Shown piece by piece: positions 6,345 through 44,681 of a stretch of 64,000 nucleotides of DNA. Position numbers and translations under genes: made by a program. The notes beneath the pieces are model-generated. The model was not told the DNA's origin and did no database searches. It worked only from the letters and a program-made list of their open reading frames with translations. Source of the DNA: Candidatus Latescibacterota bacterium (lineage in GTDB: Bacteria > Latescibacterota > UBA2968 > GCA-2709665). The stretch is from assembly GCA_965248435.1 (NCBI GenBank), contig OZ252100.1:3616001-3680000 (forward strand), written 5' to 3'. Position 1 is the stretch's first letter; each line of letters starts with the position of its first letter.

Positions 6345-6637
6345 TATAGATCAGTATTTGGATAATGGCCATTTTTATGGGGGGTGTTATGAAAGAACGC
6401 CCGATCGTTTTGTACTACAAATTTATTTTTGGCCGCACAGCCCGGGGTGCAGATGTGCGGCATTTCTATGTCTGACATGAAAGGAGGGATGCCCGCGCGC
6501 GCGATTGCAAAAGATTCCGAACTTCAAACGCGGTGATTAAAACGTAATTTTTCAAGATAGGAGGCTAAGTGGCAAAGAGATCTAGATTTAAACGTTCGTT
6601 AGGTTTAGTTTCGCCGGGTAACAACCAAGGAGGAAGT

Positions 6638-9739: not shown

Positions 9740-9828
9740 TCGAATGCGGATTGTGGATCGGGGATTGCGGATCGGAAATGCCATCCAATATCCCCGATTC
9801 CAGATCTTAACAGAAGGAGTGCTTTACG

Positions 9829-12294
9829 ATGAAATGCATTTCTTTTAAGTCACTGTCCGGTCTGTTCTTGGCTGGCGTGTTCCTCGCCGGTACGGTGGCC
9901 GCCGAGGCGCAGTTTACAGGCGTCACCGACGTCACCATGTGGGGTTCGAGGCGCGGCTTTTTCCGGGGGATACCCGGGGACAGCTTCGCCCCCAACGGCC
10001 AGTCCGGCTCCACCTGGGACACCAAGAAGGGCCGGGGCGCGGGCCAGTGGTCCTACCCGTTCAATTATGCGACCCTGTGCTGTTTCACGCCCAAATATGA
10101 TGACGCCGATCTGTGGGGAGCTATGGCAGAATACTCGGCGGGGCAGATGCAGGACAACGCGGCCGGAAAGGGCGTCATTGTCCTGCAGAACACGAACGGA
10201 GAGAAGTTCGTCTCCTGGACGGGTCCGAACGTTCCCAGTTCGGACACCCTGCCGCTGATTTACGACATCGAAAACAGTCGGTACAGCTACGATGCTGCAG
10301 TCAACGCCGCGCTCGGGCCCGCGGAGCAGTTCCAGTTCGGGTCCGGCAGTTCGATCGGCGCCCCGTATCTGGGCCGCGAAACGGTGACGCCCAGCTACGT
10401 CGGGGACTCCAATCTCGGTCCTGGGGGAGTCGGGGAGAACACGACCAACTGGTACCCAGGCGCACTGTCCAAGCTGGACGCTGGCGTCGCGGCGCACCAG
10501 ACGGACTGCTACGAGATCAACAACTACGACTGGTCAATCTACGCCCCGGTGCAGAACGAGGCTGAAAAGCTCTCGGTTTGCCAGTGGACGCACAAGAACG
10601 ACCTGGTCGTCACGCGGATCAACCGTGGCTGGAGCCACCAGGACCTCGACGACGGAATCCTCTGGGATATCGAGATCGAGAACCAGGGCAGCGCGACGAT
10701 GAACGGCGTCCACATCGGGTTCATGAACACCCTCTACACGAGCGTGTTCGGGTGCAAGTGGTGGAACGCCAACGTCGGGGCGATTATGCAGTACCGCGAC
10801 CCGGGGTGCTACGACGACTGGTTCAAGTTCACCGAGGCGCCGAACTACGTGGCCGCCGGTGGCGACGCGGACCTGGTCGGGAAGATCATCCACTACGTCT
10901 ACGACGGGGACGACAAGACGGTGTTGTTCCACGACGACACGGGAGACCCGAACGACAATTCGATTCGCTCCCCCTATATGTTTCGTGGCTTCAACATGGG
11001 GAACATCCCGGACGGCGTGCTCCAGTCGCCGGCCTTCGTGGGCACGGGGTGGCTCGCGTTCCAGAACACCGGTGCCAGCCATACCTTCAACGAGTACGAC
11101 AAGGCGCAGGGCTACAACGATCCGGTCGGATTCAGCGGGGCGCTAGGGAAGTACTGGCCGGTAATCAAGCGGGGCGTCGCCGATGAGCCGTTCGAGGCCA
11201 AGGGCTGGACGGCCGCGCAGCAGTATGACGGCTTGTTGGGGGCGACGAACGATGACCCGACCACGGACATCCAGGAGCAGTTCCAGAGCACATTGATCGG
11301 TCCCTACAACCTGGACCCGGGAGACAAGGCCAAGGTCGTGTTCTTCATGTTCGGCGCGCACGGAGGGATGTTCGAGTTCGGTCCGGAGGGCTCCGGTTAC
11401 TCCAAGGATGTCATGCGCTGGGCGTTCGATAACGCCGGCACGTTCGGGACTGATGTCGCCCTTCGAAAGCAGAAGTTTATCGGCGACGGTCACAAAGGGG
11501 TCGGGATGGTATATGACCACTTCGCGTTCGCCTACGCGAACGACTATCAGATCCCGAACACCCCACCCGACATCGAAAGGAGTTTCTCGTTCAGCCCGGA
11601 AGCGCAGAACGTGATCTCCTGGCCGTCGGCCGAAGACGTGAACCCCGACTACGGCGGCACGTCGGACATCACGGCATACCGGATCTATACCTCCGACTTT
11701 GACGATTCGGGGGGATGGCGCCCGGTTGGCGAGGTCCCGGCGACCGGCGCGAGCTCCTACACCTTCATCGATCCAGAGTCGGTGGCCGGGTTCGGCTATT
11801 TGTACACGGTGCGCGCCGTGGCCTCCGCCAAGACAACCTGGAGCGAGGGGAACGCGACACTCGCGGACCTGCCAGCCCGGATGGCCTCGCACGTGACCGG
11901 CGGCATGATGGGCGGATTTGCGGCGGTCGAGCAGACGCTCTGGCAGCCAAAATACCCGAAAGCAGCCCCGGCTACGGCGTTCGAGAACCTGGATGAAGTC
12001 CCGCGGGTGGTGCCCAACCCGTTCAGCCTGTCGCGGGACAAAACGGAATCGAACTACCAGAGCGGGCTGAATATCCGGTTTACCGGGGTCCCAGCCAAGT
12101 CCACGATCCGGATCTACTCGGTCTCGGGCGATCTGATGAGAGTGATCCAGCACGATGACCCGAACGCGGGCGAGGCGGTCTGGACTCAGAACGACAGGTT
12201 CTCCAGCGCCACGGTCGGGACGGGTGTCTACTATTTCGTCGTTGAAAACGCAAGCGGCAAGACTCAGAAGGGGACCTTCGTCGTCCTGAGATGA
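9829..12294 (+). CDS. Secreted protein with FN3-like region and C-terminal T9SS-CTD/FlgD-Ig-like sorting domain
   Basis: Signal peptide (AEA/QF); VISW..YRIY..YTFID..YLYTVRAV; C-terminal VVPNPF..IRFTGVP..IRIYSVSGDLMRVI..GVYYFVVE..GTFVVLR. Confidence 0.8.
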   Translation: MKCISFKSLSGLFLAGVFLAGTVAAEAQFTGVTDVTMWGSRRGFFRGIPGDSFAPNGQSGSTWDTKKGRGAGQWSYPFNYATLCCFTPKYDDADLWGAMAEYSAGQMQDNAAGKGVIVLQNTNGEKFVSWTGPNVPSSDTLPLIYDIENSRYSYDAAVNAALGPAEQFQFGSGSSIGAPYLGRETVTPSYVGDSNLGPGGVGENTTNWYPGALSKLDAGVAAHQTDCYEINNYDWSIYAPVQNEAEKLSVCQWTHKNDLVVTRINRGWSHQDLDDGILWDIEIENQGSATMNGVHIGFMNTLYTSVFGCKWWNANVGAIMQYRDPGCYDDWFKFTEAPNYVAAGGDADLVGKIIHYVYDGDDKTVLFHDDTGDPNDNSIRSPYMFRGFNMGNIPDGVLQSPAFVGTGWLAFQNTGASHTFNEYDKAQGYNDPVGFSGALGKYWPVIKRGVADEPFEAKGWTAAQQYDGLLGATNDDPTTDIQEQFQSTLIGPYNLDPGDKAKVVFFMFGAHGGMFEFGPEGSGYSKDVMRWAFDNAGTFGTDVALRKQKFIGDGHKGVGMVYDHFAFAYANDYQIPNTPPDIERSFSFSPEAQNVISWPSAEDVNPDYGGTSDITAYRIYTSDFDDSGGWRPVGEVPATGASSYTFIDPESVAGFGYLYTVRAVASAKTTWSEGNATLADLPARMASHVTGGMMGGFAAVEQTLWQPKYPKAAPATAFENLDEVPRVVPNPFSLSRDKTESNYQSGLNIRFTGVPAKSTIRIYSVSGDLMRVIQHDDPNAGEAVWTQNDRFSSATVGTGVYYFVVENASGKTQKGTFVVLR

Positions 12295-13625: not shown

Positions 13626-15689
13626 TTGGCAACACCCGTACAGAAAACCGCCCCCAGTCAGACACCTGAACCCGACACGGAGCCGACCGCGCGCCGGGGG
13701 TTGACGGCGCGATCCGTCATGCTCGGTCTGGTTGGGGTCGTCGCGATGAACGTGATCGCCGTCTACGTGCCCTACGACTACCAGGGCTCGTTGATGACCT
13801 ACACGCACGTCCCGATGGCGATGCTCATCGTGTTCGTGCTGATGGTCATCTGCGGCGCGGCCTTCTCGCGCTGGACGGGAATCGTGCTTTCCACGACGGA
13901 GTGGCACACGATCCTGGCCATGGGCATCGTCGCGGCCGCGGTCCCCGGCTACGGGCTGACGACCTACCTGCTCGCCCTGATGGCCGCGCCCCACTACTAT
14001 CCTGCAGTCTACCGCTCGTCGACGGCGCCGTGGGAAACCTTCCTGTATCCCTACACCAAAGATTGGCTGTTCCCCAGCAATGAAGGGAACGCGGTCTCGT
14101 GGTTCCACGAGGGCCTGCCTCCCGGCGCGGAAATCCCGTGGGATGTCTGGGTGGTCCCGCTCTTCTCGTGGGGCACGATGATCGCGGCCTTCTTCCTGAC
14201 CCTGGCCTGCGTGGCGGCCATCCTTCGGAAGCAGTGGCTGAGGAACGAGCGCCTCGTGTTCCCCGCCACGGTGCCGCTTGTGGATATGGCCGCGCACCCC
14301 GGGTCCGGGAGGCGCGCCCTTCCGGAATTCACGAAGCACTTCCTCTTCCGGGTTGGATTCTGCATCTCCTTCGGGATGATCGCCTGGAACTGTATCAGCT
14401 ACTTCATCCTCAACTTCCCACGGTTTCCGATCGGCGAGGGGGATTTCAAGCAGTTCAGCGAGGAGTTCCCCAATGTGATGGTGTCGCTCGACCTCTACAC
14501 GCTCTTCTTCTCCTATTTCGCCAGCCTGGACGTCCTGTTCAGCCTCTGGTTCTTCGACCTGGTGTATATCCTGGAAGCCGGGGGTCTTCACGCGTTGGGG
14601 GTCGACACGAGGCCGGTGAGCGGGGCTGCCCGGGGCGTCATCATTTCACAGACGATGGGGGCCTATGCCGTGTTCGCGCTTTCGGTTTTCTGGGTCGCGC
14701 GCGGTCACATCAGAGACGTTTTCCGAAAGGCGCTGAACCGCGATGCGCCTGTGGACGACCAGGACCAGCTTCTTTCCTACCGAACGGTGGTGATCGGTCT
14801 GATCGTCGGCCTGGTCTTCATGTTCCTGTGGCTGACGCGTATCGGCTACGAGGCAGTTTTCGCCGCCCTGGTCCTGCCGATCGTCATCCTGGTTTACGTG
14901 GGCATGGCCAGGATGGTCGCCGACTCAGGCATGCCCTTTCTGAGCATCCCCCGCGGCGTTTCGGGGTTCGGATACGTAGGGAGGATTGTCGGCCGGGATG
15001 CGACGAGTGCGAGCACACTCGTGGCGCACCACTGCGAAGACATCCTGTTCCACCATTTCAGGGGGCTCTTTCTGCCGGCCCTTGCACACGCGGGTCGGAT
15101 CGCGGAGGGGGTGCGGGGAAATCGCCGACATCTGATGGCCGCGGTTGTCCTCGCCTTTTTCGTCAGCCTGTTTCTCTCTGTCACGTTGACACTCGATCTG
15201 GCCTACCGCAAGGGGGCCCACGCCTTCAACAGCTGGATGATCGGAGACTGGGCGTCTCGGCACCTCAGAAACGCGGCGCAGAGCGTCAGCTACAAGTTCA
15301 AGAATCCGTCTCCACCCATCCATATTCGAAGCCCCGACCATCTCGCCTTTCTCACGATCGGTGGGGCGGCCATGGCCGGGTTGACCTATCTACGGCACAC
15401 CTTCTTCTGGTGGCCGCTCCATCCGCTGGGGCTCGCGCTTGTGGGGGCCGAGCTGGTCCGCCGGACGAGCACGACCCTTTTCCTGGCCTGGCTGATCAAA
15501 CTGCTCATGCTGCGCGTGGGCGGACAGGCGGTCTATCAGAAGTCGTTTCCGCTCTTCCTCGGACTGCTCGTCGGCTATGTCCTAGGTGTGGCGTTCTCCG
15601 GGTTGATCGATGCCATCTGGTTCCCCTATCAAGCGCATCCCGTTCACACGTTGGGATGGTACGACGGCCCGGCTGTGTTTCACTACTAA
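13626..15689 (+). CDS. DUF6785/DUF6784-family polytopic membrane protein (OPT-like)
   Basis: GLTARSVMLG, ILRKQWLRNERLVFP, MARMVADSG, WWPLHPLG and PLFLGLLVG motifs; TTG start is uncertain. Confidence 0.85.
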   Translation: MATPVQKTAPSQTPEPDTEPTARRGLTARSVMLGLVGVVAMNVIAVYVPYDYQGSLMTYTHVPMAMLIVFVLMVICGAAFSRWTGIVLSTTEWHTILAMGIVAAAVPGYGLTTYLLALMAAPHYYPAVYRSSTAPWETFLYPYTKDWLFPSNEGNAVSWFHEGLPPGAEIPWDVWVVPLFSWGTMIAAFFLTLACVAAILRKQWLRNERLVFPATVPLVDMAAHPGSGRRALPEFTKHFLFRVGFCISFGMIAWNCISYFILNFPRFPIGEGDFKQFSEEFPNVMVSLDLYTLFFSYFASLDVLFSLWFFDLVYILEAGGLHALGVDTRPVSGAARGVIISQTMGAYAVFALSVFWVARGHIRDVFRKALNRDAPVDDQDQLLSYRTVVIGLIVGLVFMFLWLTRIGYEAVFAALVLPIVILVYVGMARMVADSGMPFLSIPRGVSGFGYVGRIVGRDATSASTLVAHHCEDILFHHFRGLFLPALAHAGRIAEGVRGNRRHLMAAVVLAFFVSLFLSVTLTLDLAYRKGAHAFNSWMIGDWASRHLRNAAQSVSYKFKNPSPPIHIRSPDHLAFLTIGGAAMAGLTYLRHTFFWWPLHPLGLALVGAELVRRTSTTLFLAWLIKLLMLRVGGQAVYQKSFPLFLGLLVGYVLGVAFSGLIDAIWFPYQAHPVHTLGWYDGPAVFHY

Positions 15690-15796
15690 AGGATCGGGTA
15701 CCGGGAATGCAAAACACGGGTACCGTAGCATGTTGTATCGCACCGTGGCAGACGATTGATATGTATCTCGACAGAAGACGGAGCAATAATCAATAT

Positions 15797-16851
15797 GCTG
15801 GATTCAATGACTAAGTGCAACACTTGGACTTGAAGACTTCAGCTGGTGTTTTGAAGTTAAGACATTTTCTTGGTCGGTTGTTGATCCGGTTCTGAATTTT
15901 CTTTAACTCGTGTTTGCTGACCTTTGAGAAGTCTGTCTTCTTGGGGAGGTATCTGCGGACCAGACCGATAGCGTTTTCCACAGCGCCTCGCTCCCAGCTG
16001 TGGAACGGTTTGCAGAAATAGGATTTGGTGCCAAGCACCTCGTTGACCCGTTGATGTTGGCCGTTTTCGGATCCGTTGTCATATGTGATGCTCTTCCTCA
16101 TGTGGGGAGGATGTCGCCCAAGGCGTCGATTAATCGCTTCGGCGACCTCCGAGGGTCCGTTCTTTGCCAGCTTAGCCAGGTGTAGGTATCTCGACGATCG
16201 CTCAAGACAAGCGCCAACGGCCTGTTTGCTCTCACGAGAGATGATGGTGTCGGATTCCCAGTGGCCAGGTTGTTTCCGTTTTTCGATGTAACGGGGACGT
16301 CGATCGATCGAAATACGGCCTGGAATGTGGCTTTCCCGGTGTTTTCGGGTATGCCACCGCGGCTTTCGTTTTTTGTGAGCTCGGGATAAGCAAGCAACCA
16401 GATCCCGCTGCTTGTGCACCTTTGGATCGTAGATATACTGGTAGATGGCTTCGTGGCTGATACCCGCGCTCGGACGCTCCTCGGGAAGCCTCCCAGCGAT
16501 CAACTCGGGAGACCATCCTTGCTTGAGTTTGGTCTCGACATATCGCCGGATAACCGGATTCTTCAGCCGTTTCCGCTTGCCGGCCTCCCGCTTACGTTTC
16601 TCAGCCCTTCTGTGAGCCTGGAGGCCCGAGTAACTCTCAGCTATCGGGGACGGATTACGTTTCAACTCTCTTGAAATCGTGCTGGCGCTCCGGTCAAGGG
16701 CCTTGGCAATATCTCTAAGGCTTGCACCAGTGGCTCGACAAAGCGCAATCTGCTCGCGTTCGTCTATCGTAAGATGCTTGTAATTGTTTCCCATACACTT
16801 AGGATAGGACAGTTGCTACCCTAAGTGTTGCACTTCCTTATTGAACTCAGG
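15797..16851 (-). mobile_element. IS30-family insertion sequence
   Basis: Imperfect 28-29 bp terminal IRs (CTGGATTCAATGACTAAGTGCAACACTT at 15798-15825; AAGTGTTGCACTTCCTTATTGAACTCAG at 16823-16850), flanked by a TAT 3-bp direct repeat. Confidence 0.9.
15811..16794 (-). CDS. IS30-family transposase
   Basis: YKHLTIDER, HTH STISRELKRN, WSPELIAG, GHWESDT, ITYDNGSE, WERGAVEN and NNRPRKCL motifs. Confidence 0.95.
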   Translation of the reverse strand: MGNNYKHLTIDEREQIALCRATGASLRDIAKALDRSASTISRELKRNPSPIAESYSGLQAHRRAEKRKREAGKRKRLKNPVIRRYVETKLKQGWSPELIAGRLPEERPSAGISHEAIYQYIYDPKVHKQRDLVACLSRAHKKRKPRWHTRKHRESHIPGRISIDRRPRYIEKRKQPGHWESDTIISRESKQAVGACLERSSRYLHLAKLAKNGPSEVAEAINRRLGRHPPHMRKSITYDNGSENGQHQRVNEVLGTKSYFCKPFHSWERGAVENAIGLVRRYLPKKTDFSKVSKHELKKIQNRINNRPRKCLNFKTPAEVFKSKCCT

Positions 16852-16972
16852 TATCCAACACGCAATATCCAATAATCAAGGGCGATAATGAAGCGTGGGT
16901 CAATTTTGGATTTCGGATTTGGGATTGCGGATTGAAGAGGCTGGATCACGAAAGGACACGAAGAAACACGAA
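16852..16972. repeat. Short tandem arrays (CAATATC-type, GGATTTC-type, CACGAA-type)
   Basis: CAACACGCAATATCCAATAATCAA; TTTTGGATTTCGGATTTGGGATTGCGGATT; CACGAAAGGACACGAAGAAACACGAA. Confidence 0.75.
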
Positions 16973-17063
16973 GTTTCAACCACCCAATGATCTCCTGAAG
17001 AGCTTGGCTACAGTCCACGAATGACGATCGGCAGTTGTACTTGGAGGGGACTTAGGGTAACCG

Positions 17064-20000
17064 ATGGCTGATTTTCTGCAGTTGCTTCGCCGTATCGCTT
17101 TGATCCTCCTGATCGGGCTCGGCGCTGTCGCCTTCCTCTTTTTCGGGATCGGACCTGAACGCACCTCCCCGTGGCTGACCGACCTCCTCGGTCTGGAGCC
17201 GCCCCCACCCCTTCCACCTGCGCCCGTTCACGAGGCCGGGGACGTTTCGGGACGCGTGATCGATGCCGTGTCCGAGGCCGATGTTCGTCGTCTGATGGCC
17301 CGCTTCACGAGCCATGGGTCCCGCGTTCCGGGCTACTCCGGTCACGACGACGCGGCGCGGTTCATCCTGCAGGAGTTCGAACGCCTCGGCCTCGAAGGGG
17401 TGAAGACCGAAGCATTCGACGTGACCTCCCCCGTGGACAAGGGGGGGCGCCTTACCCTCACCAAGAGCGGTGCCTCCTTTTCCCTGCACTCAATCTGGCC
17501 CAACCTGGTGAAGACCTCCACGCTCCCCCCGGGAGGTGTGCGGGCTCGCTTGATTTACGGAGGTGACGGCACGTGGGAGACCTTTAACGGGCACGATATG
17601 GACGGTGCTGCTGTTCTGATGGAGTTCAACTCCTGGAACCGATGGCTCAACGCCGCTTCGCTGGGCGCAGGACAGATCATCTTTATCGAGCCAGACTCCA
17701 CGACGCGCGCGGAGGGCGAACAGAAGTACCTGATCTCGCCCAACGGGACCGAACGGTTCTGGATCGACAAATCCTCAGGACGTGAACTGCGGCGATTGCT
17801 GGAGAAAGAGGGGGAGGTGGAGGTGGAGCTTCACGCGCGCATGGACTGGGAGAAGACGGTTGCCCACAACATTCTGGGGACCGTTCCCGGGACCGATCCG
17901 GAGCTCAAGGACCAGATCATCGTGATCAACGCCTACTACGATGCGATGTCGGTCGTGCCGGCCCTGGCGCCGGGCGCAGAAATGGCCTGTGGAATCGTGG
18001 CGCTGCTCGAGCTCGCGGACTATCTCCAGCGACACCCGCCCGCGCGGACCGTGCTGCTTCTGGCCAGCTCGGCCCACCACTTCAGTTCACGCGGGATCTC
18101 CGATTTTCTGAGTCGTCACGCCCGCAAGCAGGAGGACTTCGCCGCGTTGATGACCGACCCGATCGACATCCGCCTGTTTATCGCGCTGGATCTCTCCAGC
18201 CGGACTGCCGAGATCGGCCTCTGGAACAGCGCGCCGAGTCACTACTATAAACAGTTCTTCACGCCGATCGGAAAGTCGCTCGTTCGATTCACCAGGGCGA
18301 TCGCTGAGGACTTCGGCCTCGATCCCCAGCGCGCGCTGATCGACGGCGTCAATCCACCCCCCGGGATGACGTGGAAAATCTTCAACCCCGGGAAACTCGT
18401 GAAGACTGAAGGCCTGATCGTGATGGCGGCCGGCACGCCGGCCCTTTCGCTTGTCACGTTGAACGATGCCCGCCTCGGCGTCGACACCCCCCTGGACAGA
18501 CCGGAGATCGTGGACTACGCGAACCTGACCGGACAGATCCGCCTGCTGACCGGCGTGATCGACCTGGCGCTCAACGACCCGGGTTTAATCACGGACTACG
18601 AACTGCGCCCGGAGGACCGCGTTCAGTGGCTGAAGGGGTATGCGAAGACCTTCCCTAGGCGCAGCATCGTCCCGGACCGCCCCAAGCCTGGAGCGATTGC
18701 GGCGGTGCGCCTTGGCAGGAGCGAGAATTATTCGTCGTCCAAATCGGCCAAAGGAGTTAGAGAGACCCGCTATGACATAGCCGACGAGAGGGGGGCGTTT
18801 ATCATCCCCGGCATTATCGAAAAGAAAGCGACCGCCTCAGTCTATGTTTTGGACTCCGATACGGGGGAGATCACTCACGCGCCCAACCGCGGCGTGCAGG
18901 CCGACATCTACAAGCCAGAGGTCGATATGGACTGGTGGATGACGGAGCAAATCAGTGTCCTGTTCCCCTGCGTCGCCACCGATTTTTACGACATCGTGGA
19001 TCCCCGCTATCTGAACAAGTTGTCGGAGGTCAGTGTATACGGGGAGGACAACGCGGCCCCACAGGAGTACGGTTACGATATCGGTTTGGGCGCGACCGGG
19101 GAACTGCGCCACCCTGAGTCGATGGCGGTCGGGACCCTCTTCACGCGTCCCGGGGAGAAGGTAAAGATCACGATGCGCTCCTGGGCGATCGGTCTTCGCC
19201 TCGTGCTGCTTAACGCGATGGGCGTGGAGACGGAGGAAGCCGCCCGCGGCGGAGGGTTTGTCACCCACGCTTCGGGCACCGTCCCTCGCACCGCCTACCA
19301 GGCGGCGAAGGATATGTGGATGCTGAACGAAAGCCGGATACGTGAACTGAAACGATTCGCGATCGAGAATCACAGACTGAACGTCCTCCACGCCCAGTCG
19401 GCAGACCACCTCGAGCAGGCCGAGTCTGCACTGGCACAAAAGCGCTGGGACCTGTTCATGAAGCACAGCCGGGCCGCCCTGGGTTTCGAGTCGCGGGCCT
19501 ATCCTGACGTGAAGGCCACCCAGAACGGTGTGATCCGGGGGATTATTTTCTTCATGGCCCTGGTGATCCCGTGCGCCTTCTTTGCCGAACGGCTCATCAT
19601 TACGGCCTCCGACATTCGGTGGCAGCTCACTGCCTTCGCCGGCATCTTCGGCGTGATCTGGGTCTTTCTCTACTTCGTACACCCGGCGTTCGAGCTCTCC
19701 AATCCGTTCGTCGTCCTGCTCGCCTTCATCATCCTTGCGCTTGCCGCCTTCGTCATTTCGCTGATCTTTTCCCGGTTCAACGAGAACATGAGGCGGCTGC
19801 GAACTTCAGACGTCCTGCTGCACGAAACCGACGTCGGCCGGGTGAGCGCCTCCCTGGCCGCCTTTCAGCTGGGCATCGCCAACATGAAGCGCCGTCGACT
19901 GCGAACCTGGCTGACTTTCCTCACGCTCCTGCTGCTCACCTTTACCGTCCTTTCGTTCACCTCGATCAAATCGTCGCTGCAGTTCCACAAGCTCCAGCGG

Positions 20001-21629
20001 GACGCAGATGGGGCCTACCCCGGCGTCCTGATCCGGACCAAGGCCTGGACGCAGCTGGAGGAAGTGGCCTACGACTACGCGAAAACCCACTATGAAGGAA
20101 TCGGAGTGGTGGCCCCTCGGACCTGGCATCAGAACATGGACCGACAGCTGATTCCGCTGGACCTGGATGGGAAGTCTGCCTTTGCGCTGGGTGCGCTGGG
20201 CCTGGCGCCCGAGGAAGCGGAGGTCACCGGGATCGACAAGTATCTGAAGGCAGGGCGCTGGTTTCGGCACGGAGAAAGGGCCTGCATCCTTCCGGATCGG
20301 CTGGCCGACGAATTCGGGGTTACCGCATCGGATCTAGGAACGCGTCAGATCAGGCTCTTCGGGGAACATTTGACGGTCATCGGGCTTATGGACGCGGACA
20401 AGCTTCGCCGGTTCAAGGACCTGGATGGTGAGATGCTGACTCCGCCTGATTTTATGGAGACAGGCCTCGCCAGCCGGCGCCGCGAGGGGCAACTGGAGCA
20501 TCGGGAGAGACAAGGGATCAACCAGCCGGCGGCGGATATCTTCGAGTTCCAGCATCTCGATCCGGACGACGTTTTGATCCTTCCATACGAGTTCATAAGA
20601 GAGGTTGGAAGTCCCCCGCAGTCCCTCGCCATTCGCTTCCATCCCGGAGTAGATATCGAAGCGCAGGTCAAGGCCCTGCTTTCCCGCCTCGCAGTGATCC
20701 TGTTCGCAGGACTCCCCGATGCAGATGGGAGGGTCAATGTGTCGGTCTACAGCTCGTTCGGCGACACCTCCTTCAGGGGACTCGGGAACCTCTTTATCCC
20801 GGTCCTGATCGCAGCCCTCATCGTGTTGAACACGATGATGGGCTCGGTCTACGAACGCTTTCGGGAGATCGGCATCTACTCCGCGGTCGGTCTGGCCCCG
20901 CTGCACATCGCCTTCCTGTTTATCGCCGAGGCGTGTGTCTATGCGGTCTTCGGCACGGTCGGCGGTTACCTCCTGGGGCAGGGGGTCGCCAAGATCATTC
21001 TCTGGCAGGGCTGGCTTACCGGTGTGACGCTCAACTACTCCGCCATGTCCGCTGTGTATGTCTCCGTCCTGGTGATGGCTGTGGTGGTTCTGTCCACGCT
21101 TTACCCGGCTCGGCAGGCCTCAAACATGGCGGTGCCCGACGTGACGCGCCGCTGGACGCTGCCGGATCCGGAGGGCGACCACTGGCGATTCGAGTTTCCC
21201 TTCACGGTCGGGGGCGGCGAGGTCTTCGGCCTCAGCAGGTTCCTGGTTGACTACTTCGAATCCCACAGCGGCGAGTCGACCGGAATGTTCATGTCTGAGG
21301 GCACGACCCTGGAGGCGCGGACGACAGAGAAGGGCGAGGGATGCAGGATCGAGACCACCATCTGGACCGCTCCCTACGACCTGGGGGTCAGCCAGCGAGT
21401 GAGTTTCGATGCATCGCCCACGGGTGAATTCAACATTTACGCCCTCTCACTCGCAATCGACCGTCTCTCCGGGGACGTCACCTCCTGGCAGCGGGTGAAT
21501 CGCGGTTTTATGGGAGCGCTCCGGAAGCAGTTCCTCATCTGGCGGACCCTGAGTCCCGAAGACCGTGCGGGCTACATCCAGAGAGGCGGCGAGATCCAGA
21601 CCGCAGACCACGGACCACGGACTGCATAA
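17064..21629 (+). CDS. Large membrane protein: PA/M28-peptidase-like ectodomain fused to MacB/FtsX-like permease domains
   Basis: N-terminal TM; GSRVPGYSG, NILGTVPG..IIVINAYYD..APGA (M28 fold); ANMKRRRLRTWLTFLTL; LNTMMGSVYERFREIGIYSAVGLAP..FIAEA (FtsX); STLYPARQAS. Confidence 0.85.
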   Translation: MADFLQLLRRIALILLIGLGAVAFLFFGIGPERTSPWLTDLLGLEPPPPLPPAPVHEAGDVSGRVIDAVSEADVRRLMARFTSHGSRVPGYSGHDDAARFILQEFERLGLEGVKTEAFDVTSPVDKGGRLTLTKSGASFSLHSIWPNLVKTSTLPPGGVRARLIYGGDGTWETFNGHDMDGAAVLMEFNSWNRWLNAASLGAGQIIFIEPDSTTRAEGEQKYLISPNGTERFWIDKSSGRELRRLLEKEGEVEVELHARMDWEKTVAHNILGTVPGTDPELKDQIIVINAYYDAMSVVPALAPGAEMACGIVALLELADYLQRHPPARTVLLLASSAHHFSSRGISDFLSRHARKQEDFAALMTDPIDIRLFIALDLSSRTAEIGLWNSAPSHYYKQFFTPIGKSLVRFTRAIAEDFGLDPQRALIDGVNPPPGMTWKIFNPGKLVKTEGLIVMAAGTPALSLVTLNDARLGVDTPLDRPEIVDYANLTGQIRLLTGVIDLALNDPGLITDYELRPEDRVQWLKGYAKTFPRRSIVPDRPKPGAIAAVRLGRSENYSSSKSAKGVRETRYDIADERGAFIIPGIIEKKATASVYVLDSDTGEITHAPNRGVQADIYKPEVDMDWWMTEQISVLFPCVATDFYDIVDPRYLNKLSEVSVYGEDNAAPQEYGYDIGLGATGELRHPESMAVGTLFTRPGEKVKITMRSWAIGLRLVLLNAMGVETEEAARGGGFVTHASGTVPRTAYQAAKDMWMLNESRIRELKRFAIENHRLNVLHAQSADHLEQAESALAQKRWDLFMKHSRAALGFESRAYPDVKATQNGVIRGIIFFMALVIPCAFFAERLIITASDIRWQLTAFAGIFGVIWVFLYFVHPAFELSNPFVVLLAFIILALAAFVISLIFSRFNENMRRLRTSDVLLHETDVGRVSASLAAFQLGIANMKRRRLRTWLTFLTLLLLTFTVLSFTSIKSSLQFHKLQRDADGAYPGVLIRTKAWTQLEEVAYDYAKTHYEGIGVVAPRTWHQNMDRQLIPLDLDGKSAFALGALGLAPEEAEVTGIDKYLKAGRWFRHGERACILPDRLADEFGVTASDLGTRQIRLFGEHLTVIGLMDADKLRRFKDLDGEMLTPPDFMETGLASRRREGQLEHRERQGINQPAADIFEFQHLDPDDVLILPYEFIREVGSPPQSLAIRFHPGVDIEAQVKALLSRLAVILFAGLPDADGRVNVSVYSSFGDTSFRGLGNLFIPVLIAALIVLNTMMGSVYERFREIGIYSAVGLAPLHIAFLFIAEACVYAVFGTVGGYLLGQGVAKIILWQGWLTGVTLNYSAMSAVYVSVLVMAVVVLSTLYPARQASNMAVPDVTRRWTLPDPEGDHWRFEFPFTVGGGEVFGLSRFLVDYFESHSGESTGMFMSEGTTLEARTTEKGEGCRIETTIWTAPYDLGVSQRVSFDASPTGEFNIYALSLAIDRLSGDVTSWQRVNRGFMGALRKQFLIWRTLSPEDRAGYIQRGGEIQTADHGPRTA

Positions 21630-21762: not shown

Positions 21763-21819
21763 AGCGCGGGAATGAATTCCCGCGCTCGTGAAACAGGAAG
21801 TCCGCCCTGCGGCGGACTG
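21763..21819. repeat. Two adjacent palindromes (REP-like or IS200/605-end-like)
   Basis: AGCGCGGGAAT-GA-ATTCCCGCGCT and AGTCCGCC-CTGC-GGCGGACT. Confidence 0.6.
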
Positions 21820-21870
21820 AAGCCAGACCTCTTGCTCCACCTTCTGAGATGCGGATTAGTGGAGGTTCGT

Positions 21871-22563
21871 GTGGGTGAAAGCCAGGCAGAGATCTTTGAG
21901 CGCGATGGATTCCTGGTCGTGAACCGCATTTACGATGCCGAGGAGATGGTCAGTTGGAAGGAAGCCGTCGTCAGGATTATGCGGGAGGAGGGGAGTCTGG
22001 ACAATCTGCCTTCAGGCGTGAGGGTCTGGATGCTCGATGAACTTCACCCCTTCTTCAGAGAACGTATGAAGGACCCGTGCGTTATCGACGTCCTGAGGCG
22101 AGTCGTCGGTCCTGATCTCGAGTTTCTAAGCGTGAAGGCGGTCTACAAGAACCGCAGCACGACGTTCGAGTCGCCGTGGCACCAGGACTGGTATTACTGG
22201 AGAGGTGCCAGCAAGATCTCGATCTGGATCGCCCTGGATGACGCGAACTCCGAGAACGGCTGTCTCAAGATGATCCCCGGCAGCCACAAGAAACGGTTCG
22301 ATGTCCAGAAGGTAAAAGAAACGACCGGTTTCGGATGGCGGGCCGAGAGCGAAGCGCTGGAGGATCTGCCGGTCGTCACGCTGGAAGTCGCGTGTGGCGA
22401 CGCCGTCTTCTTCCACGATCAGATGCTCCACAGCTCTTATCCGAATAGATCGGGGACAGACCGATGGTCTATGATATCGACTTACCGGGATGCCTCCGTC
22501 GCCGACGACTCCACCAGCTGGGATCGTTCCATGTTGGTGAGTGGGCTGTCCGTCAATGGATGA
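21871..22563 (+). CDS. Phytanoyl-CoA dioxygenase (PhyH)-family Fe(II)/2OG oxygenase
   Basis: FERDGFLV, PWHQD, WIALDDANSENGCLKMIPGSH and GDAVFFH...LHSSYPNRS...R motifs; GTG at 21871 follows a GGAGG RBS. Confidence 0.9.
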   Translation: MGESQAEIFERDGFLVVNRIYDAEEMVSWKEAVVRIMREEGSLDNLPSGVRVWMLDELHPFFRERMKDPCVIDVLRRVVGPDLEFLSVKAVYKNRSTTFESPWHQDWYYWRGASKISIWIALDDANSENGCLKMIPGSHKKRFDVQKVKETTGFGWRAESEALEDLPVVTLEVACGDAVFFHDQMLHSSYPNRSGTDRWSMISTYRDASVADDSTSWDRSMLVSGLSVNG

Positions 22564-22738: not shown

Positions 22739-25228
22739 ATGTTAGCGAACCTCTTACGCAGACGCAAATCGGCCCAGTTCCAGGAGATCGAGGAATACCG
22801 GGATCTGCTGGAAACACCCGACAGCTTTGAAGAGGGCTTCAACACCAAGACGATCCTGGGCGCCCTCTTCGTCTCGGTCATCATGGTCCCGGGCAACATC
22901 TACCTGGAGCTGATGATCGGGGGCTCGATCGGGGCGGCCGCGCAATGGGTCACGATCATCCTCTTCCTGGAGCTGTCCAAGCGGTCTTTCACCGTGTTGA
23001 AGCGGCAGGAGCTCTACCTCCTCTACTACGTCACGAGCGCGCTCGTGGCCCGGGAGACCGGCGCCTCCGACGGCATGCTCTGGAACCAGTATTTCGTCCA
23101 GTCTCCCGCGGCCAAACAGTTCGGGATCGCCAAGCTGATCCCCTGGTGGTGGGCCCCACCGCCCGGTTCGGAGGCCCTCGCCGAGCGGACCTTCTTCCAC
23201 CAGGACTGGCTCTGGCCGATCTCGATCATGGTCCTCGGCTTCATCATGGCGCGCATCGCCTGGTTCACCGCCAGCTACGTCCTGTTCCGGCTGACTTCCG
23301 ACTATGAGCGCCTCCCGTTTCCGTTCGCTCCGATCAACGCGCAGACCGCGATGGCCCTGGCCGAGGAGAGCAGCGGGGAGATCACGTGGAAATGGCGCGT
23401 CTTCAGCATCGGGGCGGTCATCGGGGTGGTCTGGGGCGCGATCTATGTGGGGGTCCCCGCGATCACGGGGGCGTTTATGGAGGAACCGGTCCAGATCATC
23501 CCGATCCCGTGGGTCGACTTCACGCAGTACACCGGCAACTTCCTGCCGGCGACGCCCCTCGGGTTCACGCTTCACCTGGGGCCGATCTTTGCCGGTCTGC
23601 TCGCGCCGTTCTGGGCGGTGATGGGGTCGTTTCTCGGTGTCGTGGTCCATTCGATCGCCAGCCCGATCCTGCACCATTACGGCTACATGCCTCACTGGAT
23701 CATGGGCATGGATACGATCCAGACGCACTTTGTGACCGGGATCGACTTCTGGATGTCTTTCGGGATCGGACTCACGTTCGCCATCACCGTCATCGGCCTG
23801 TATCAGGTCTTCACGGGTGTGCGATCTGCGAGGATCGAGAAACAGGAGAAGGGGAGCTGGACGCCTCCGGCCGGACGCGGAGACTTCCGGATCTGGATCT
23901 GCATCATCCTGTTCTGCATCGCCAGCATCTACACGATCGCGCTCGCCAAGGTCCTCTTTCCGGCCCTGATCGGCAGGACCGTGATGATCTTCTTTCTGGT
24001 CTTCGCCTTCGTCTACACGCCGCTCATCTCCTTTGTCAACGCGCGGTTGGACGGACTCGTCGGCCAGCAAACCAACATTCCGTATGTCAAAGAGACCACG
24101 ATCTTCCTCAGCGGCTTCCAGGGGGTCGACATCTGGTTCGTCCCGTTCCCGATGACCACCTACGCAGCCGAAGCCAATAAATTCAGAGAGATCGAACTGA
24201 CCGGGTCGAAGTTCACCGGCATCCTGAAGGCCGAACTCTTCATGGTTCCGCTGATTCTGTTCACCAGTTTTTTCTACTGGTCCTACATCTGGAAGCTGGC
24301 GCCGATCCCCTCGGATGCCTATCCCTACGCCCAGTTGATGTGGCCGCTCCGCGCGCTGCAGCAGAGCGTCTGGTATACGAGCACGATGCGCAGTGAAATC
24401 GTGCCCGACGCCAGGGCGGGAAACATCACCTGGATTCCGGGAAACCTGACCGACGGGGGCTGGTGGTACTGGCGTGCCCGGACACGGGAGGACACAGACT
24501 CGGAGGCGTTCAGGAAGCGATTCGAGGCCTGGATGTCGGGTCCCGAGAAGAAGGATTCGAACAGCGACGGGAAGATCGATGAGGAGGATCTCAGGGCGGT
24601 CGGTCCCTGGTCGCGGGTCGGAACCTTCTATACTAACTTCGAAGGTACAGACCCACCGCCTGACCCGCCACCGTCGGTCCGCGTCGAGCCCTTAACCCGA
24701 AGGATCTCAGAAACCTTGCCGTCCACGCCACCCGCGATTAAACGGCCCGTGGACGGCCACCACGTGGACACGCCCAACCCCAAGCTCATGATCGAAGGGT
24801 TTCTGGGCGCCGAGGGGCAGACCTGGGTCTACGAGTTCGAGGTCGATGAGGTCCCTTCATTCGATGGGGCCTTCCTTCAGAGTTCGGACGACAAGCCGAT
24901 CCTGTTCGAGGCCCTGAAGCCGAAGGTGATCGCGATCGGTTTCGCCGTCGGCCTGTTGACGTTCATCATCCTGTCCGTCTTCGGGCTTCCGATCCTCCTG
25001 ATCTTCGGCTACGTGCGGAGCCTGACCAACATCCCGCACGTGATGATCACCGAAATCATCGGCGCGCTCCTCGCGCGCTACTATTTCCAGAAGAAATACG
25101 GCAGGCAACAGTGGCGCCTCTACGCCGCCGTCCTGCTCGCCGGTTTCTTCGCCGGCATGGCCCTCGTGGGGATGGGCTCTGTCTCGATCGCGATGATACA
25201 GAAATCGGTCTCTGTATTGCTGTTCTGA
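22739..25228 (+). CDS. OPT-superfamily-like putative peptide transporter with a soluble Ig/FN3-like insertion
   Basis: Many TM helices; YRDLLETPDSFEEGF, AAQWVTIILFLE, ERLPFPFAP and WKLAPIPSDAYPYAQ motifs; hydrophilic insert at about 24385-24895. Confidence 0.75.
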   Translation: MLANLLRRRKSAQFQEIEEYRDLLETPDSFEEGFNTKTILGALFVSVIMVPGNIYLELMIGGSIGAAAQWVTIILFLELSKRSFTVLKRQELYLLYYVTSALVARETGASDGMLWNQYFVQSPAAKQFGIAKLIPWWWAPPPGSEALAERTFFHQDWLWPISIMVLGFIMARIAWFTASYVLFRLTSDYERLPFPFAPINAQTAMALAEESSGEITWKWRVFSIGAVIGVVWGAIYVGVPAITGAFMEEPVQIIPIPWVDFTQYTGNFLPATPLGFTLHLGPIFAGLLAPFWAVMGSFLGVVVHSIASPILHHYGYMPHWIMGMDTIQTHFVTGIDFWMSFGIGLTFAITVIGLYQVFTGVRSARIEKQEKGSWTPPAGRGDFRIWICIILFCIASIYTIALAKVLFPALIGRTVMIFFLVFAFVYTPLISFVNARLDGLVGQQTNIPYVKETTIFLSGFQGVDIWFVPFPMTTYAAEANKFREIELTGSKFTGILKAELFMVPLILFTSFFYWSYIWKLAPIPSDAYPYAQLMWPLRALQQSVWYTSTMRSEIVPDARAGNITWIPGNLTDGGWWYWRARTREDTDSEAFRKRFEAWMSGPEKKDSNSDGKIDEEDLRAVGPWSRVGTFYTNFEGTDPPPDPPPSVRVEPLTRRISETLPSTPPAIKRPVDGHHVDTPNPKLMIEGFLGAEGQTWVYEFEVDEVPSFDGAFLQSSDDKPILFEALKPKVIAIGFAVGLLTFIILSVFGLPILLIFGYVRSLTNIPHVMITEIIGALLARYYFQKKYGRQQWRLYAAVLLAGFFAGMALVGMGSVSIAMIQKSVSVLLF

Positions 25229-25371: not shown

Positions 25372-26677
25372 TGTACAGACTTGGGACATGGTATACACCC
25401 GTTTGGACACATGGCATACACTTCTAAAGTGGTGCATAATAGACCTCCAACAAGGAGGTCTTTATGCCGTGGCCGGAGGTATCCATTGTGTCTTCTCGGT
25501 TGGAGTTCGTCACGTTGGCGATGTCCGATGAGGTCAATATCCGTGTACTCTGCAGGCGGTTCGGGGTCTGTCCGAGTACTGCCTACAAGTGGATCAGACG
25601 CTATGAGCGTGATGGACCTGCGGGATTAGAGGATCAGTCTCGTCGTCCGCATTATAGTCCAAAGCGTACTCCCAAGAACATTGAAAGCCAGATTCTCGTC
25701 GTGCGTGATCAGCACCCGAGCTGGGGTGGACGGAAGATCCAGGATATTCTGCTCAAGAAAGGTATTTCATCGGTTCCTAGCCCCAGCACGATTACCCAGA
25801 TTTTGAGGCGAAACGATCGGCTTGATCCTGCCGAATCGGAAAAGAACAAAACCTGGCGCCGCTTCGAGGAGAAAGTCCCAAACGCCTTATGGCAAATGGA
25901 CTTCAAGGGTCACTTTCCCCTCTGGAAAGGGCGGTGTCACCCGTTAACCGTTCTGGACGATCATTCTCGTTATTCGGTCGGCCTGCAGGCCTGTGGCAAT
26001 GAGCAGGCGCCGACCGTAAAAGAACGCCTCACAGGCGTTTTCGAGAGGTATGAGTTGCCGGATCGGTTCCTGGTGGACAACGCTACACCTTGGGGCGGAA
26101 GAAGCCCGTGGGATCTGACGGGATTAACCATCTGGTTGATCCGGTTAGGCATCGGCGTGATCCACAGCCGACCTTATCATCCTCAGACACTGGGTAAGGA
26201 CGAGCGATTCCACAGAACACTCAACGAGGAAGTGCTTCGACATCGCGCCTGGCTGGATCTGGACCAGTGTCAGCGTGCGTTCGACAAGTGGCGACTCACA
26301 TACAATCTGGAACGGCCTCACGAAGCGCTAGATATGGCGGTGCCCGCAGAGCGATATCGTCCCAGCTCCAGAACCTTCCCAAAACAGCTTCTCCCGCTCG
26401 AATATGCACCTGGAGACCTGGTGAGGAAGGTTCAGGACAAAGGCGAGTTTTCGTTCAAAGGCCGGTTGTTCCAAGTCAGTAGAGCGTTGAGAGGCCATCC
26501 TGTCGCAATGAGAGCCACCAGGATCGACGGAGTGTTCGACGTCTTCTTCTGCCACAAAAAACTATCCACAATCGATCTAAACAGCACCCCAAAGGGGACT
26601 ATGACATCCCTATCCCCCTAGTCAAATGTGTATACCATGTCCCCGAACACCTGTTTACCATGTATCCGGTCTGTACA
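25372..26677 (+). mobile_element. IS481-family insertion sequence
   Basis: TGT...ACA termini; IRs TGTACAGACTTGGGACATGGTATACAC and TGTTTACCATGTATCCGGTCTGTACA, with internal repeated CATGG units; AAGGG 5-bp direct repeat (25367-25371 and 26678-26682). Confidence 0.92.
25464..26621 (+). CDS. IS481-family transposase
   Basis: MPWPEVS..RLEFV, TAYKWIRRY, LWQMDFKG, VLDDHSRY, PYHPQTLGKDERFHRTL and YNLERPHEAL motifs. Confidence 0.95.
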   Translation: MPWPEVSIVSSRLEFVTLAMSDEVNIRVLCRRFGVCPSTAYKWIRRYERDGPAGLEDQSRRPHYSPKRTPKNIESQILVVRDQHPSWGGRKIQDILLKKGISSVPSPSTITQILRRNDRLDPAESEKNKTWRRFEEKVPNALWQMDFKGHFPLWKGRCHPLTVLDDHSRYSVGLQACGNEQAPTVKERLTGVFERYELPDRFLVDNATPWGGRSPWDLTGLTIWLIRLGIGVIHSRPYHPQTLGKDERFHRTLNEEVLRHRAWLDLDQCQRAFDKWRLTYNLERPHEALDMAVPAERYRPSSRTFPKQLLPLEYAPGDLVRKVQDKGEFSFKGRLFQVSRALRGHPVAMRATRIDGVFDVFFCHKKLSTIDLNSTPKGTMTSLSP

Positions 26678-44593: not shown

Positions 44594-44600
44594 AGGAAAC

Positions 44601-44647
44601 AAATCCCCCCTACCCCCCTTTTCCAAAGGGGGATTAAGGGGGATTTA
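44601..44647. repeat. Short form of the AAATCCCCC...GGGGGATTT palindromic element
   Basis: AAATCCCCCCTACCCCCCTTTTCCAAAGGGGGATTAAGGGGGATTT. Confidence 0.8.
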
Positions 44648-44681
44648 AGAATCATCACATCTCACCTCAAAGAGTTGATTC

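Follow-up and report, generated by a model that had tools for sequence, protein, structure and literature searches.

A remodelled M28-like ectodomain fused to an FtsX-type permease module in Latescibacterota: candidate subunit of an undescribed type VII ABC system with OPT-like partners

The window analysed here is a stretch of 64,000 nucleotides from a Candidatus Latescibacterota bacterium (assembly GCA_965248435.1, contig OZ252100.1, called C1 below, positions 3616001-3680000). It encodes a 1521-residue protein, P0001, in which an ectodomain with the predicted fold of M28 aminopeptidases is fused to a MacB/FtsX-type membrane module, and which lies between genes for two OPT-like membrane proteins, one of the DUF6785/DUF6784 type upstream and one that we call OPTL downstream. 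P0001 is a structural member of the ATP-binding cassette (ABC) permeases of type VII, and we think it quite probable that it serves as a subunit of such a system with a dedicated ATPase. Physical partnership with the OPT-like proteins is likely as well. To the complete proposal, in which P0001 provides the membrane part of a type VII ABC system that has four components, has so far gone undescribed and works by the mechanism set out below, we give an even chance. An earlier note, made from the letters of the DNA, had described the gene as encoding a degenerate M28 pseudo-peptidase receptor joined to an FtsX permease with no ATPase nearby; the open reading frame (ORF) and the four motifs that it quoted are confirmed by the translation. 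The gene and its parts are as follows (TM, transmembrane).

17064..21629, +, M28-FtsX fusion protein P0001, 1521 aa (ORF call, Pfam, at least 790 homologues)
17067..17150, +, N-terminal membrane anchor helix, residues 2-29 (hydrophobic segment; model helix 2-29)
17226..18608, +, PA-inserted M28-fold ectodomain, residues ~55-515 (VIA-align, Foldseek, profile alignments, conservation)
18621..19283, +, beta-rich periplasmic domain, residues ~520-740 (model strands 521-740)
19290..19538, +, stalk of three long helices into the membrane, residues 743-825 (model helices 743-764, 770-791 and 795-825)
19539..19805, +, family-specific three-helix TM bundle, residues ~826-914 (C-half model helices 2-27, 31-52 and 61-94)
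19839..19970, +, cytoplasmic elbow helix and TM1 of the MacB-like module, residues ~926-969 (C-half model helices 106-123 and 125-149)
19980..20765, +, MacB-like periplasmic core domain, residues ~973-1234 (VIA-align, weak Pfam match, homologues with PF12704)
20793..21131, +, FtsX TM2-TM4 with the coupling-helix motif ERFREIGIYSAVGLAP, residues ~1244-1356 (Pfam, profile alignment, Foldseek)
21132..21605, +, cytoplasmic C-terminal alpha/beta domain, residues ~1357-1514 (model; family-specific, not P-loop)

That P0001 does not stem from a chance ORF follows from its homologues: with a threshold of E ≤ 0.001, at least 790 proteins match it. Their lengths run from 836 to 2662 aa and are, for the majority of those listed, close to 1500 aa. 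Pfam recognises Peptidase_M28 at residues 269-379 (28.9 bits, cut-off 21.3, covering only positions 1-96 of the 193 in the profile) and FtsX at 1245-1355 (55.1 bits, cut-off 25.5), while MacB_PCD at 995-1134 stays, with 24.3 bits, under its cut-off of 27. For the beta-rich domain (520-740), Pfam yields nothing at E ≤ 10. The NCBIfam matches (ADOP, LolC, MacB) are all of FtsX type and weak, far under their cut-offs; the best for the FtsX part is TIGR03434, the ADOP 'orphan' duplicated FtsX permeases, at E 4.7e-7 and 28 bits against a cut-off of 622. As the word orphan in that name indicates, there is precedent for FtsX permease genes without an adjacent ATPase. We nonetheless rejected P0001 as a member of ADOP, since it contains only one FtsX module, carries another kind of ectodomain and scores far under the cut-off.

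The structure was predicted as two halves, each from a 29-row alignment of relatives. For residues 1-830 the model is of good quality (pLDDT, the predicted local distance difference test score, 85.3; pTM, the predicted template modelling score, 0.83) and consists of the N-terminal helix, a PA-inserted M28 fold, a beta-rich part at ~520-740 and three long helices at 743-825. The model of residues 821-1521 (pLDDT 67.9, pTM 0.42) is good in its periplasmic and C-terminal domains and poor in its TM helices; it contains three helices, the elbow helix with TM1, the periplasmic domain, three FtsX helices and the C-terminal alpha/beta domain. The order of parts read earlier from the letters (M28 ectodomain, further soluble region, stalk, TM bundle, MacB-like domain, FtsX domain, C-terminal domain) is thus also that of the models. 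We placed the domains according to the usual MacB topology, which puts the M28-like part into the periplasm and the C-terminal domain into the cytoplasm.

In VIA-align fold comparisons against 48,161 chains, the ectodomain model was closest to the Aeromonas aminopeptidase (AAP) 1rtq (Z 29.5, root-mean-square deviation (rmsd) 2.7, 271 of 291 residues), followed by the PA-containing M28 enzymes 2ek8 (Z 27.6) and 3iib (Z 26.8), and then by TfR1 (7zqs, Z 26.2), glutaminyl cyclases (Z about 25) and GCPII (Z 23.5). Foldseek ranked 2ek8 (E 4.4e-24), BSAP, PaAP, TfR1 (3kas, E 7e-20) and GCPII at the top, and the ectodomain profile matched nicalin 7tm3 at E 1.9e-5. The predicted model thus carries the M28 aminopeptidase alpha/beta fold, and the earlier idea of a PA-inserted M28 domain, for which TfR1 was named as precedent, agrees with TfR1 and nicalin being among its structural and sequence relatives.

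The site itself was mapped by profile alignments of the P0001 family to 2ek8, 6hc6 and 2anp, using for AAP a residue numbering that we take to be H97, D117, E152, D179 and H256 for the ligands and E151 for the catalytic residue. In P0001 the motifs read AYYD (290-293), GAEMACG (304-310), SAHH (336-339) and VDTPLD (473-478). The position of H97 is occupied by Y292, that of D117 by E306 (in a register that a one-residue deletion leaves ambiguous by one residue), that of the general base E151 by H338, that of E152 by H339 and that of H256 by D474; D179 corresponds to D376, the sole ligand retained. Neither the canonical five-ligand zinc set of M28 (His, Asp, Glu, Asp, His) nor its catalytic Glu is found, so that P0001, judged by its sequence, is not a canonical M28 peptidase.

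To this extent the earlier note was right; its word degenerate, however, does not describe what the family alignments contain. Conservation was assessed in 18 full-length relatives (40-89% identity) and in 29 ectodomains (35-89% identity). Y292, D293, H338, D376, T475, P476 and D478 are invariant in both sets, and E306 and D474 never vary among the 18 relatives and reach a conservation of 90% or more in the set of 29; from 35-40% identity upward, the site is therefore invariant or nearly so, and H339 is its only variable residue (H, N or F). The same site residues are kept in a 2769-aa relative that is 37% identical across the aligned ectodomain part. At all five ligand positions the replacing residues have side chains capable of binding metal. 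Since the site residues are conserved across the family, they do not form a drifting site that has lost its function, and we conclude from these alignments that the M28 site is remodelled rather than decayed, with a conserved alternative set of residues, and that the label 'pseudo-peptidase' is unproven. The best-scoring Aeromonas aminopeptidase sequence against the family profile is 2anp, whose His aligns to H338; 2anp is presumably the E151H mutant, with some remaining activity.

Compared with the PA-domain M28 aminopeptidases (Aneurinibacillus 2ek8, Bacillus subtilis BSAP 6hc6, Pseudomonas aeruginosa PaAP) and with Aeromonas AAP 1rtq, P0001 shares the fold, including the PA insertion, and the motif positions, and differs in being membrane-anchored, in its fusion to an ABC permease and in keeping just D179 (as D376). 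It has in common with the ectodomains of TfR1, GCPII, nicalin and nicastrin type that a PA-M28 fold is tethered to the membrane. TfR1 and nicalin have lost peptidase chemistry. These proteins are eukaryotic and single-pass, whereas in P0001 the substituted site is strictly conserved and the domain is wired to an ABC module; an active site that is lost and free to drift, as in the TfR type, is not what the alignments contain, and with its site conserved P0001 does not appear to be a drifting pseudo-enzyme of that type.

The membrane half of P0001 belongs, by several measures, with MacB. The family profile matches MacB 5lil at E 5.5e-13, as well as YtrF, LolC and LolF; the alignment to 5lil spans the coupling helix (ERFREIG...YPARKA) and TM2-TM4, and the elbow/TM1 stretch aligns to the start of the MacB permease. 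Foldseek placed MacB 5gko first (E 5.9e-14), followed by LolCDE, HrtB, YtrF, YbbP and BceB, and VIA-align matched the periplasmic region of MacB (3ftj, Z 14.3, rmsd 4.9, 181 residues aligned), FtsEX-EnvC (8hd0, Z 13.2, rmsd 3.1) and 5f9q (Z 12.8, rmsd 3.4). Both the FtsX helices TM2-TM4 with their coupling helix and the periplasmic core domain between TM1 and TM2 are thus present, as expected of a type VII permease. Among the 18 full-length members, invariant residues are found in the TM bundle (E842, R843, H873, P874), in the elbow/TM1 region (D923, R926, S928, N940, R944, R947, T948) and in the coupling-helix region (E1264, R1265, R1267, E1268, G1276, P1279). In solved type VII systems the elbow and coupling helices touch the ATPase.

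P0001 shares with MacB and the other type VII systems (MacAB-TolC, LolCDE, HrtBA, YtrEF, BceAB) the four-helix FtsX module, the large periplasmic domain between TM1 and TM2, the ERxxEIG coupling helix, the N-terminal elbow helix and, in orthologous clusters, a LolD/MacB-type ATPase. It differs from them by an N-terminal extension of ~830 residues (anchor helix, PA-M28 fold, beta domain and stalk), by three additional TM helices and a cytoplasmic C-terminal domain of ~160 residues, by its conserved OPT-like neighbours, and by an ATPase whose gene is unlinked in its own genome and at most of the related loci; the scanned neighbours include neither an adaptor nor an outer-membrane partner. The MacB family is covered by a review (PMC5985334, drawn on in part).

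Functionally, the nearest analogies for a permease with a hydrolase-like domain are FtsEX-EnvC and YbbAP-TesA, which parts of PMC12646458 and PMC7668044 present as type VII ABC systems controlling or partnering periplasmic hydrolases. Like these systems (and FtsEX with PcsB or RipC), P0001 has an FtsX-fold module and a hydrolase-fold periplasmic element that is reached via long helices. Its hydrolase-like domain is, in contrast, fused in cis, has an M28 fold with a non-canonical site and goes together with two polytopic OPT-like partners, and there is no evident link to cell division or lipid hydrolysis. By this analogy, the ABC module might switch a cis-fused, active metallo-hydrolase with a Tyr/Glu/His/Asp/Asp site that acts on an envelope polymer, a lipoprotein or a lipid, and the OPT-like proteins would then be scaffolds or take up products. 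The match to FtsEX-EnvC 8hd0, the long helical stalk joining the ectodomain to the membrane, the metal-capable side chains at all five ligand positions and the His of 2anp at the position of H338 are all in keeping with such a hydrolase controller. However, H339, the counterpart of ligand E152, varies; no substrate clue indicates the cell wall; and both the strict coupling to two OPT-like proteins and the DUF6785 fusions described below would be left unexplained. We therefore consider this explanation unlikely.

The C-terminal domain was modelled with a beta-alpha-beta4-alpha-alpha order at a pLDDT of ~80-90. It had no Pfam match at E ≤ 10, nothing meaningful in NCBIfam and no usable match in the ESM Atlas. 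A Bet v1/START/Aha1-C/KA1-like fold was considered for it and rejected, the VIA-align scores (Z 7.2-8.3) being in the noise range of the tool, and we claim no fold family; a fold check of the separate domains, as the earlier note had proposed, thus recovers the M28 and MacB/FtsX folds, and for the C-terminal domain stays at noise level. A profile of this domain run against 1.84 billion cluster representatives (50% identity clusters) retrieved 1557 proteins at E ≤ 0.001, in which the domain is nearly always located at the C-terminus of proteins of 1450-3053 aa. The family also occurs in records labelled Candidatus Poribacteria. Longer members of 2445-3053 aa exist (P0245, P0246 and P0279), of which P0245 and P0246 add N-terminal Big_5 domains; in the P0279 cluster, one member is named 'LysM repeat protein' by JGI.

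As the earlier note had stated, there is no ABC ATPase in the window: PF00005 has no match in the 64 kb, and of its 50 matches in the same genome the nearest are at C1:3550128 and C1:4046233. Among the FtsX-domain genes and LolD-like ATPases listed for the genome, two LolD-like ATPases have no FtsX gene nearby. One of them (C1:1151792) sits in a prfB-lysS-mcsB-clpC housekeeping cluster. The other, referred to here as the orphan ATPase (G000:C1:2242846-2243634), is 0.8 Mb away from the nearest paralog of P0001 and 0.88 Mb from the nearest FtsX-domain gene, and the scanned ORFs flanking it contain no permease family; its best solved relatives are all type VII ATPases (MJ0796, Spr0694, the nucleotide-binding domain of MacB, YtrE, LolD and YbbA).

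Used as a query in a phylum sample (one set of 61 genomes), the orphan ATPase found orthologues of 69-91% identity in 26 genomes. These are located 2.6-2.8 kb upstream of an M28-FtsX gene in G018, G058 and G051, at 10-20 kb from one in G041, G049, G013, G037 and G028, and far off or on another contig in the remaining genomes. At three loci (L104, L105 and L012) a same-strand cluster in the order ATPase, DUF6785, M28-FtsX, OPTL was read out; the ATPase in the L104 cluster is 79% identical to the orphan, with Walker A, signature and Walker B motifs intact, and the accompanying DUF6785 protein is 51% identical to that of the window. Exact motif scans were extended to 80 related loci (~2 Mb), for which the degeneracy of the patterns makes chance matches negligible. 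A pattern coding for ADEPTGNLD, the MacB-type ATPase motif, is found at 16 of the 80 loci and always on the strand of the M28-FtsX gene. Eleven of these matches are upstream, at ~3.1 kb (L009, L012-L018, L025, L054) or, in L010, at 5.5 kb, and come from a clade with 62-69% identity that is closest to the window gene outside its genus; two more are at 7.5 kb, and three are downstream (L058, L060, L061).

The second arrangement is represented by the L060 operon, which consists of M28-FtsX, OPTL, a 220-aa mini-FtsX and a 243-aa ATPase separated by gaps of 4, -4 and 18 nt. This mini-FtsX shares 54% identity with one near the G003 cluster and 49% with one in the window's own genome that adjoins another ATPase. 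Distant lineages have, downstream of M28-FtsX and OPTL, a conserved pair of a mini-FtsX (220-286 aa, with almost no periplasmic domain) and a LolD-like ATPase. Another ORF and spacers several hundred bases long intervene in L088 and L106, and the own-genome pair is located apart from the clusters. It is conceivable that the mini-FtsX and M28-FtsX proteins form a heterodimer in the style of LolC/LolE. The pairs are the following.

L060, 16384-17795, mini-FtsX/ATPase pair
L088, 5897-7462, mini-FtsX/ATPase pair
L106, 12064-13866, mini-FtsX/ATPase pair
L005, 1018-2789, mini-FtsX/ATPase pair (own genome, C1:4499853-4501624)

ATPase linkage is thus seen in two independent arrangements, and the window's own genome retains an orthologue of the linked ATPase. 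The claim of a receptor without an ATPase does not agree with the in-cluster motif at 16 of the 80 loci and the 79%-identical orphan; linkage to a LolD/MacB ATPase, which the earlier note named, if consistent, as evidence against itself, is present at those 16 loci and absent, as far as the motif is concerned, from the flanks of the other 64. A receptor that functions independently of an ATPase would use an inactive M28 ectodomain to bind a ligand, and its FtsX-like helices would signal to the C-terminal domain or to an OPT-like partner without any ABC motor. For this speak the lack of an ATPase in the window and near the two other paralogs, the 64 loci without the motif, the replaced M28 ligands, the relationship to TfR1 and nicalin, and the conserved non-P-loop cytoplasmic domain after TM4. 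On the other side, ATPase genes occur within orthologous clusters and operons, an orthologous orphan is retained in the same genome, the elbow and coupling helices that would contact an ATPase are invariant, and the substituted site residues do not drift. On balance we regard such a motor-less receptor as very unlikely.

The partners of P0001 are encoded on either side of it.

13626..15689, +, DUF6785/DUF6784 polytopic membrane protein, 687 aa, upstream partner (PF20581 E 1.5e-90, PF20580 E 3e-19)
22739..25228, +, OPT-like polytopic membrane protein (OPTL), 829 aa, downstream partner (homology to the genes after paralogs 2 and 3)

The genome has three M28-FtsX paralogs, the other two being 89% and 41% identical to the window copy. 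Each is followed by a homologous polytopic protein without a Pfam match (829, 830 and 679 aa), and the window OPTL is 99.9% identical to that of paralog 2 and 39% identical to that of paralog 3; a DUF6785/DUF6784 gene precedes two of the three paralogs, directly upstream in locus L006. Across the phylum sample, matches occur in 48/61 genomes for M28-FtsX and in 47/61 each for OPTL and DUF6785, and all three are missing from the same family (0/13 in f9). When adjacency was tallied in 18 genomes with few contigs, OPTL was directly downstream (same strand, within 2.1 kb) at 35 of 50 M28-FtsX loci among the matches listed. In L019 (G007 locus a), one locus from a subclade that lacks OPTL, DUF6785 is directly upstream (hhalign probability 100%). 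In the motif scans, the DUF6785 motif was upstream on the same strand at 60 of the 80 loci, with a fixed distance of 1.4-1.6 kb in 53 cases, and six loci have almost no upstream flank; the OPTL motif was downstream at no fewer than 33 of 80, a lower bound, as the motif misses the known OPTL of L104. The survey of neighbourhoods that the earlier note had called for thus yields OPTL and DUF6785 as regular neighbours, with an ATPase at the smaller number of loci given above.

Natural fusions provide the strongest evidence here that the FtsX-module protein and the DUF6785 protein may act as one unit. In P0373 (2120 aa) and in the fragment P0350, the C-terminal domain is followed by a complete DUF6785/DUF6784 protein. 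P0373 belongs to a 90% cluster with 56 members, of which at least five, deposited in ENA, JGI and NCBI, have lengths of 2083-2120 aa; since the fusion recurs in these, it is not an assembly accident. P0373 had also been considered as a fusion of M28-FtsX and OPTL, which was dropped when BLASTP against OPTL was negative and the partner proved to be DUF6785. Judged from conserved adjacency, matching phyletic pattern and these fusions, the partnership with OPT-like proteins is well supported, and the suggestion in the earlier note of an undescribed complex with the OPT-like protein and DUF6785 has gained from all three. A literature search, the scope of which excluded supplementary files, returned nothing on DUF6785, DUF6784, PF20581 or PF20580 and nothing that joins FtsX with M28 or OPT in Latescibacterota.

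With the OPT family (PF03169) the partners share a polytopic build, a length of 660-830 aa and an ERLPFP-type motif. PF03169 is weakly matched by 3 of 14 OPTL members (best E 6e-4), none of which reaches the curated threshold; the window OPTL has no PF03169 match in the Pfam scans, and an NCBIfam scan of the partner proteins gave nothing meaningful. NCBI names one OPTL relative 'OPT/YSL family transporter', and OPTL also occurs in Candidatus Handelsmanbacteria. The partners differ from the OPT family by their link to an ABC module, which is not known for OPT, and by having no solved relative detectable by sequence. In L088 of G003 (8839-11718), the OPT-like partner is 959 aa long and carries Reg_prop (two-component regulator propeller) repeats where the window OPTL has a variable soluble insert. 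One M28-FtsX paralog (G009:C1:924566-928847) is broken by a TAG stop and has no listed OPT-like gene after it; it is possibly a pseudogene.

Based on these observations, we suggest a system of four parts: a LolD/MacB-type ATPase, the DUF6785/DUF6784 OPT-like protein, the M28-FtsX fusion and the second OPT-like protein. In the window's own genome, the ATPase gene would have been split from the cluster, the orphan at C1:2242846-2243634 being its orthologue. A dimer of the ATPase, encoded in trans, would bind and hydrolyse ATP and thereby shift TM1 and TM2 of the FtsX module; the movement could pass to the periplasmic core domain and onward to the M28-like ectodomain, with the stalk and the additional three-helix bundle as the connection. 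By its free end, a substrate in the periplasm, most probably a peptide, would be bound by the ectodomain or, given an altered metal centre, trimmed; it would then be handed to the OPT-like permeases for uptake. We hold peptide capture or uptake only tentatively. The aminopeptidase fold and the weak OPT matches of 3/14 OPTL members hint weakly at a peptide, as do, equally weakly, the M81 peptidase and the gamma-glutamyltranspeptidase encoded beside a second DUF6785 gene of the window.

The number of DUF6785 genes invites a further speculation. Genomes contain at least 20 scored DUF6785 matches and up to 56 candidates, often as tandem pairs; this expansion and the phyletic pattern shared with M28-FtsX lead us to speculate that a few engines could serve many permeases. 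The type VII engine would not move the solute itself but would drive or gate OPT-like permeases of secondary type through its M28-like capture or trimming domain, and a few M28-FtsX/ATPase engines would serve in trans the many DUF6785 permeases, of which a genome has 20-56 candidates, in the way that TonB-ExbBD works for numerous outer-membrane receptors. We give this extension a low chance of being correct.

The direction of transport matters for another explanation, an exporter or extractor of the MacB, LolCDE or HrtBA kind. A peptide or lipid-linked molecule would here be expelled, or extracted from the outer leaflet or the periplasm, with the OPT-like proteins delivering it from the cytoplasm and the M28-like domain processing it. 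To our knowledge, no characterised type VII ABC system is an importer, all of them acting outward or inside the periplasm; this favours an exporter, as do the retained MacB-like periplasmic domain and a Wzi-like capsule assembly gene adjoining one of the paralogs. The OPT family, on the other hand, is known for import; there is no MacA/HlyD-type adaptor and no TolC-like gene among the scanned neighbours, and the expansion of DUF6785 paralogs and the peptidase neighbours suit uptake better. An exporter is in our opinion improbable.

A number of observations weigh against the four-part system that we propose. None of the three paralogs in the window's genome has a PF00005 match within 20 kb. In seven genomes (this one and six further) only 2 of 16 loci have one within 10 kb, and of these two ATPases one has an FtsX permease of its own and the other, in a frame of 375 aa, is encoded on the opposite strand. 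With 64 of the 80 related loci lacking the ATPase motif in their flanks, the linkage is clade-specific, and we infer the pairing in trans. Peptidase activity of the ectodomain is doubtful, as the catalytic Glu and four of the five zinc ligands appear replaced in the alignments. DUF6785 and OPTL are only putative transporters: their profiles have no sequence match to solved structures at E ≤ 10, and hhalign relates OPTL to DUF6785 with a probability of just 4.5%, in a collinear alignment of 189 columns that includes the ERLPFP motif. With at least 20 DUF6785 copies per genome against 1-5 M28-FtsX loci, most DUF6785 proteins cannot have a dedicated M28-FtsX neighbour. The substrate and the direction of transport, finally, are suggested by family resemblance only.

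Paradigms for type VII ABC systems are few (MacAB-TolC, LolCDE, FtsEX, HrtBA, BceAB and YbbAP-TesA). If the proposal is correct, P0001 would represent a new type VII architecture, in which the ectodomain has a hydrolase fold and is fused in cis, the TM helices include an additional bundle, the cytoplasmic domain is new and two OPT-like proteins act as partners. The more speculative extension, in which a few engines serve many permeases, would also make it a new class of ATP-assisted, receptor-dependent importer and the main nutrient-uptake platform of Latescibacterota and their neighbours. There, a Tyr/Glu/His/Asp/Asp metal centre on an M28 scaffold would be a second new element, with new chemistry. 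The family is large and widespread, as the at least 790 proteins, the 1557 C-terminal-domain representatives and the 48 of 61 genomes of the phylum sample indicate, and DUF6785 and DUF6784, so far Pfam families without an assigned function, would be tied to a definable machine that offers a route to their function. The case further illustrates how an ABC permease can seem motor-less once insertion sequences and rearrangement have dispersed its operon.

Three further features interrupt or border the cluster in the window.

15798..16850, -, IS30-like insertion sequence between the DUF6785 and M28-FtsX genes (HTH_38 and a weak rve match, under the Pfam cut-off)
21772..22563, +, PhyH-family dioxygenase gene (Pfam PhyH E 1.9e-34; not in the aligned intergenic region of L006)
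25464..26621, +, IS481-like transposase gene at the edge of the cluster (Pfam HTH_32, rve, rve_3, LZ_Tnp_IS481)

The IS30-like element has a transposase ORF at 15811-16794 and 28-nt inverted repeats at 15798-15825 and 16823-16850 that are 82% complementary. In the paralogous locus L006, ~160-190 nt separate the DUF6785 and M28-FtsX genes; in the window, the element probably uncouples their transcription. The PhyH gene is an insertion relative to L006 and probably not part of the system. Comparison of the two loci (OPTL of L006 at 15611-18103) shows OPTL proteins identical at 827 of 828 positions, with 88-89% identity for M28-FtsX and 84% for DUF6785. The near-identity of OPTL, together with the one-sided PhyH insertion, suggests a recent gene conversion or partial duplication.

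Elsewhere in the window, the second DUF6785 gene (29131-31128) has beside it genes for the M81 (MlrC-like) peptidase, a DUF3179 protein and the gamma-glutamyltranspeptidase. The stretch 43040-47879 contains three ORFs that encode 517-520 aa each; the two that were scanned (43040-44593 and 44682-46244) have no Pfam matches, and the third is at 46317-47879. Upstream of the cluster, a TonB-dependent-receptor-like gene (6569-9739, CarboxypepD_reg and Plug) is followed by an 821-aa ORF (9829-12294) without a Pfam match. Seven paralogous BNR/sialidase-like genes (426-456 aa) stand in a row at 47956-53485 and 57469-61525, broken by a 651-aa ORF without a Pfam match and by a GH42-like gene (53522-55510).

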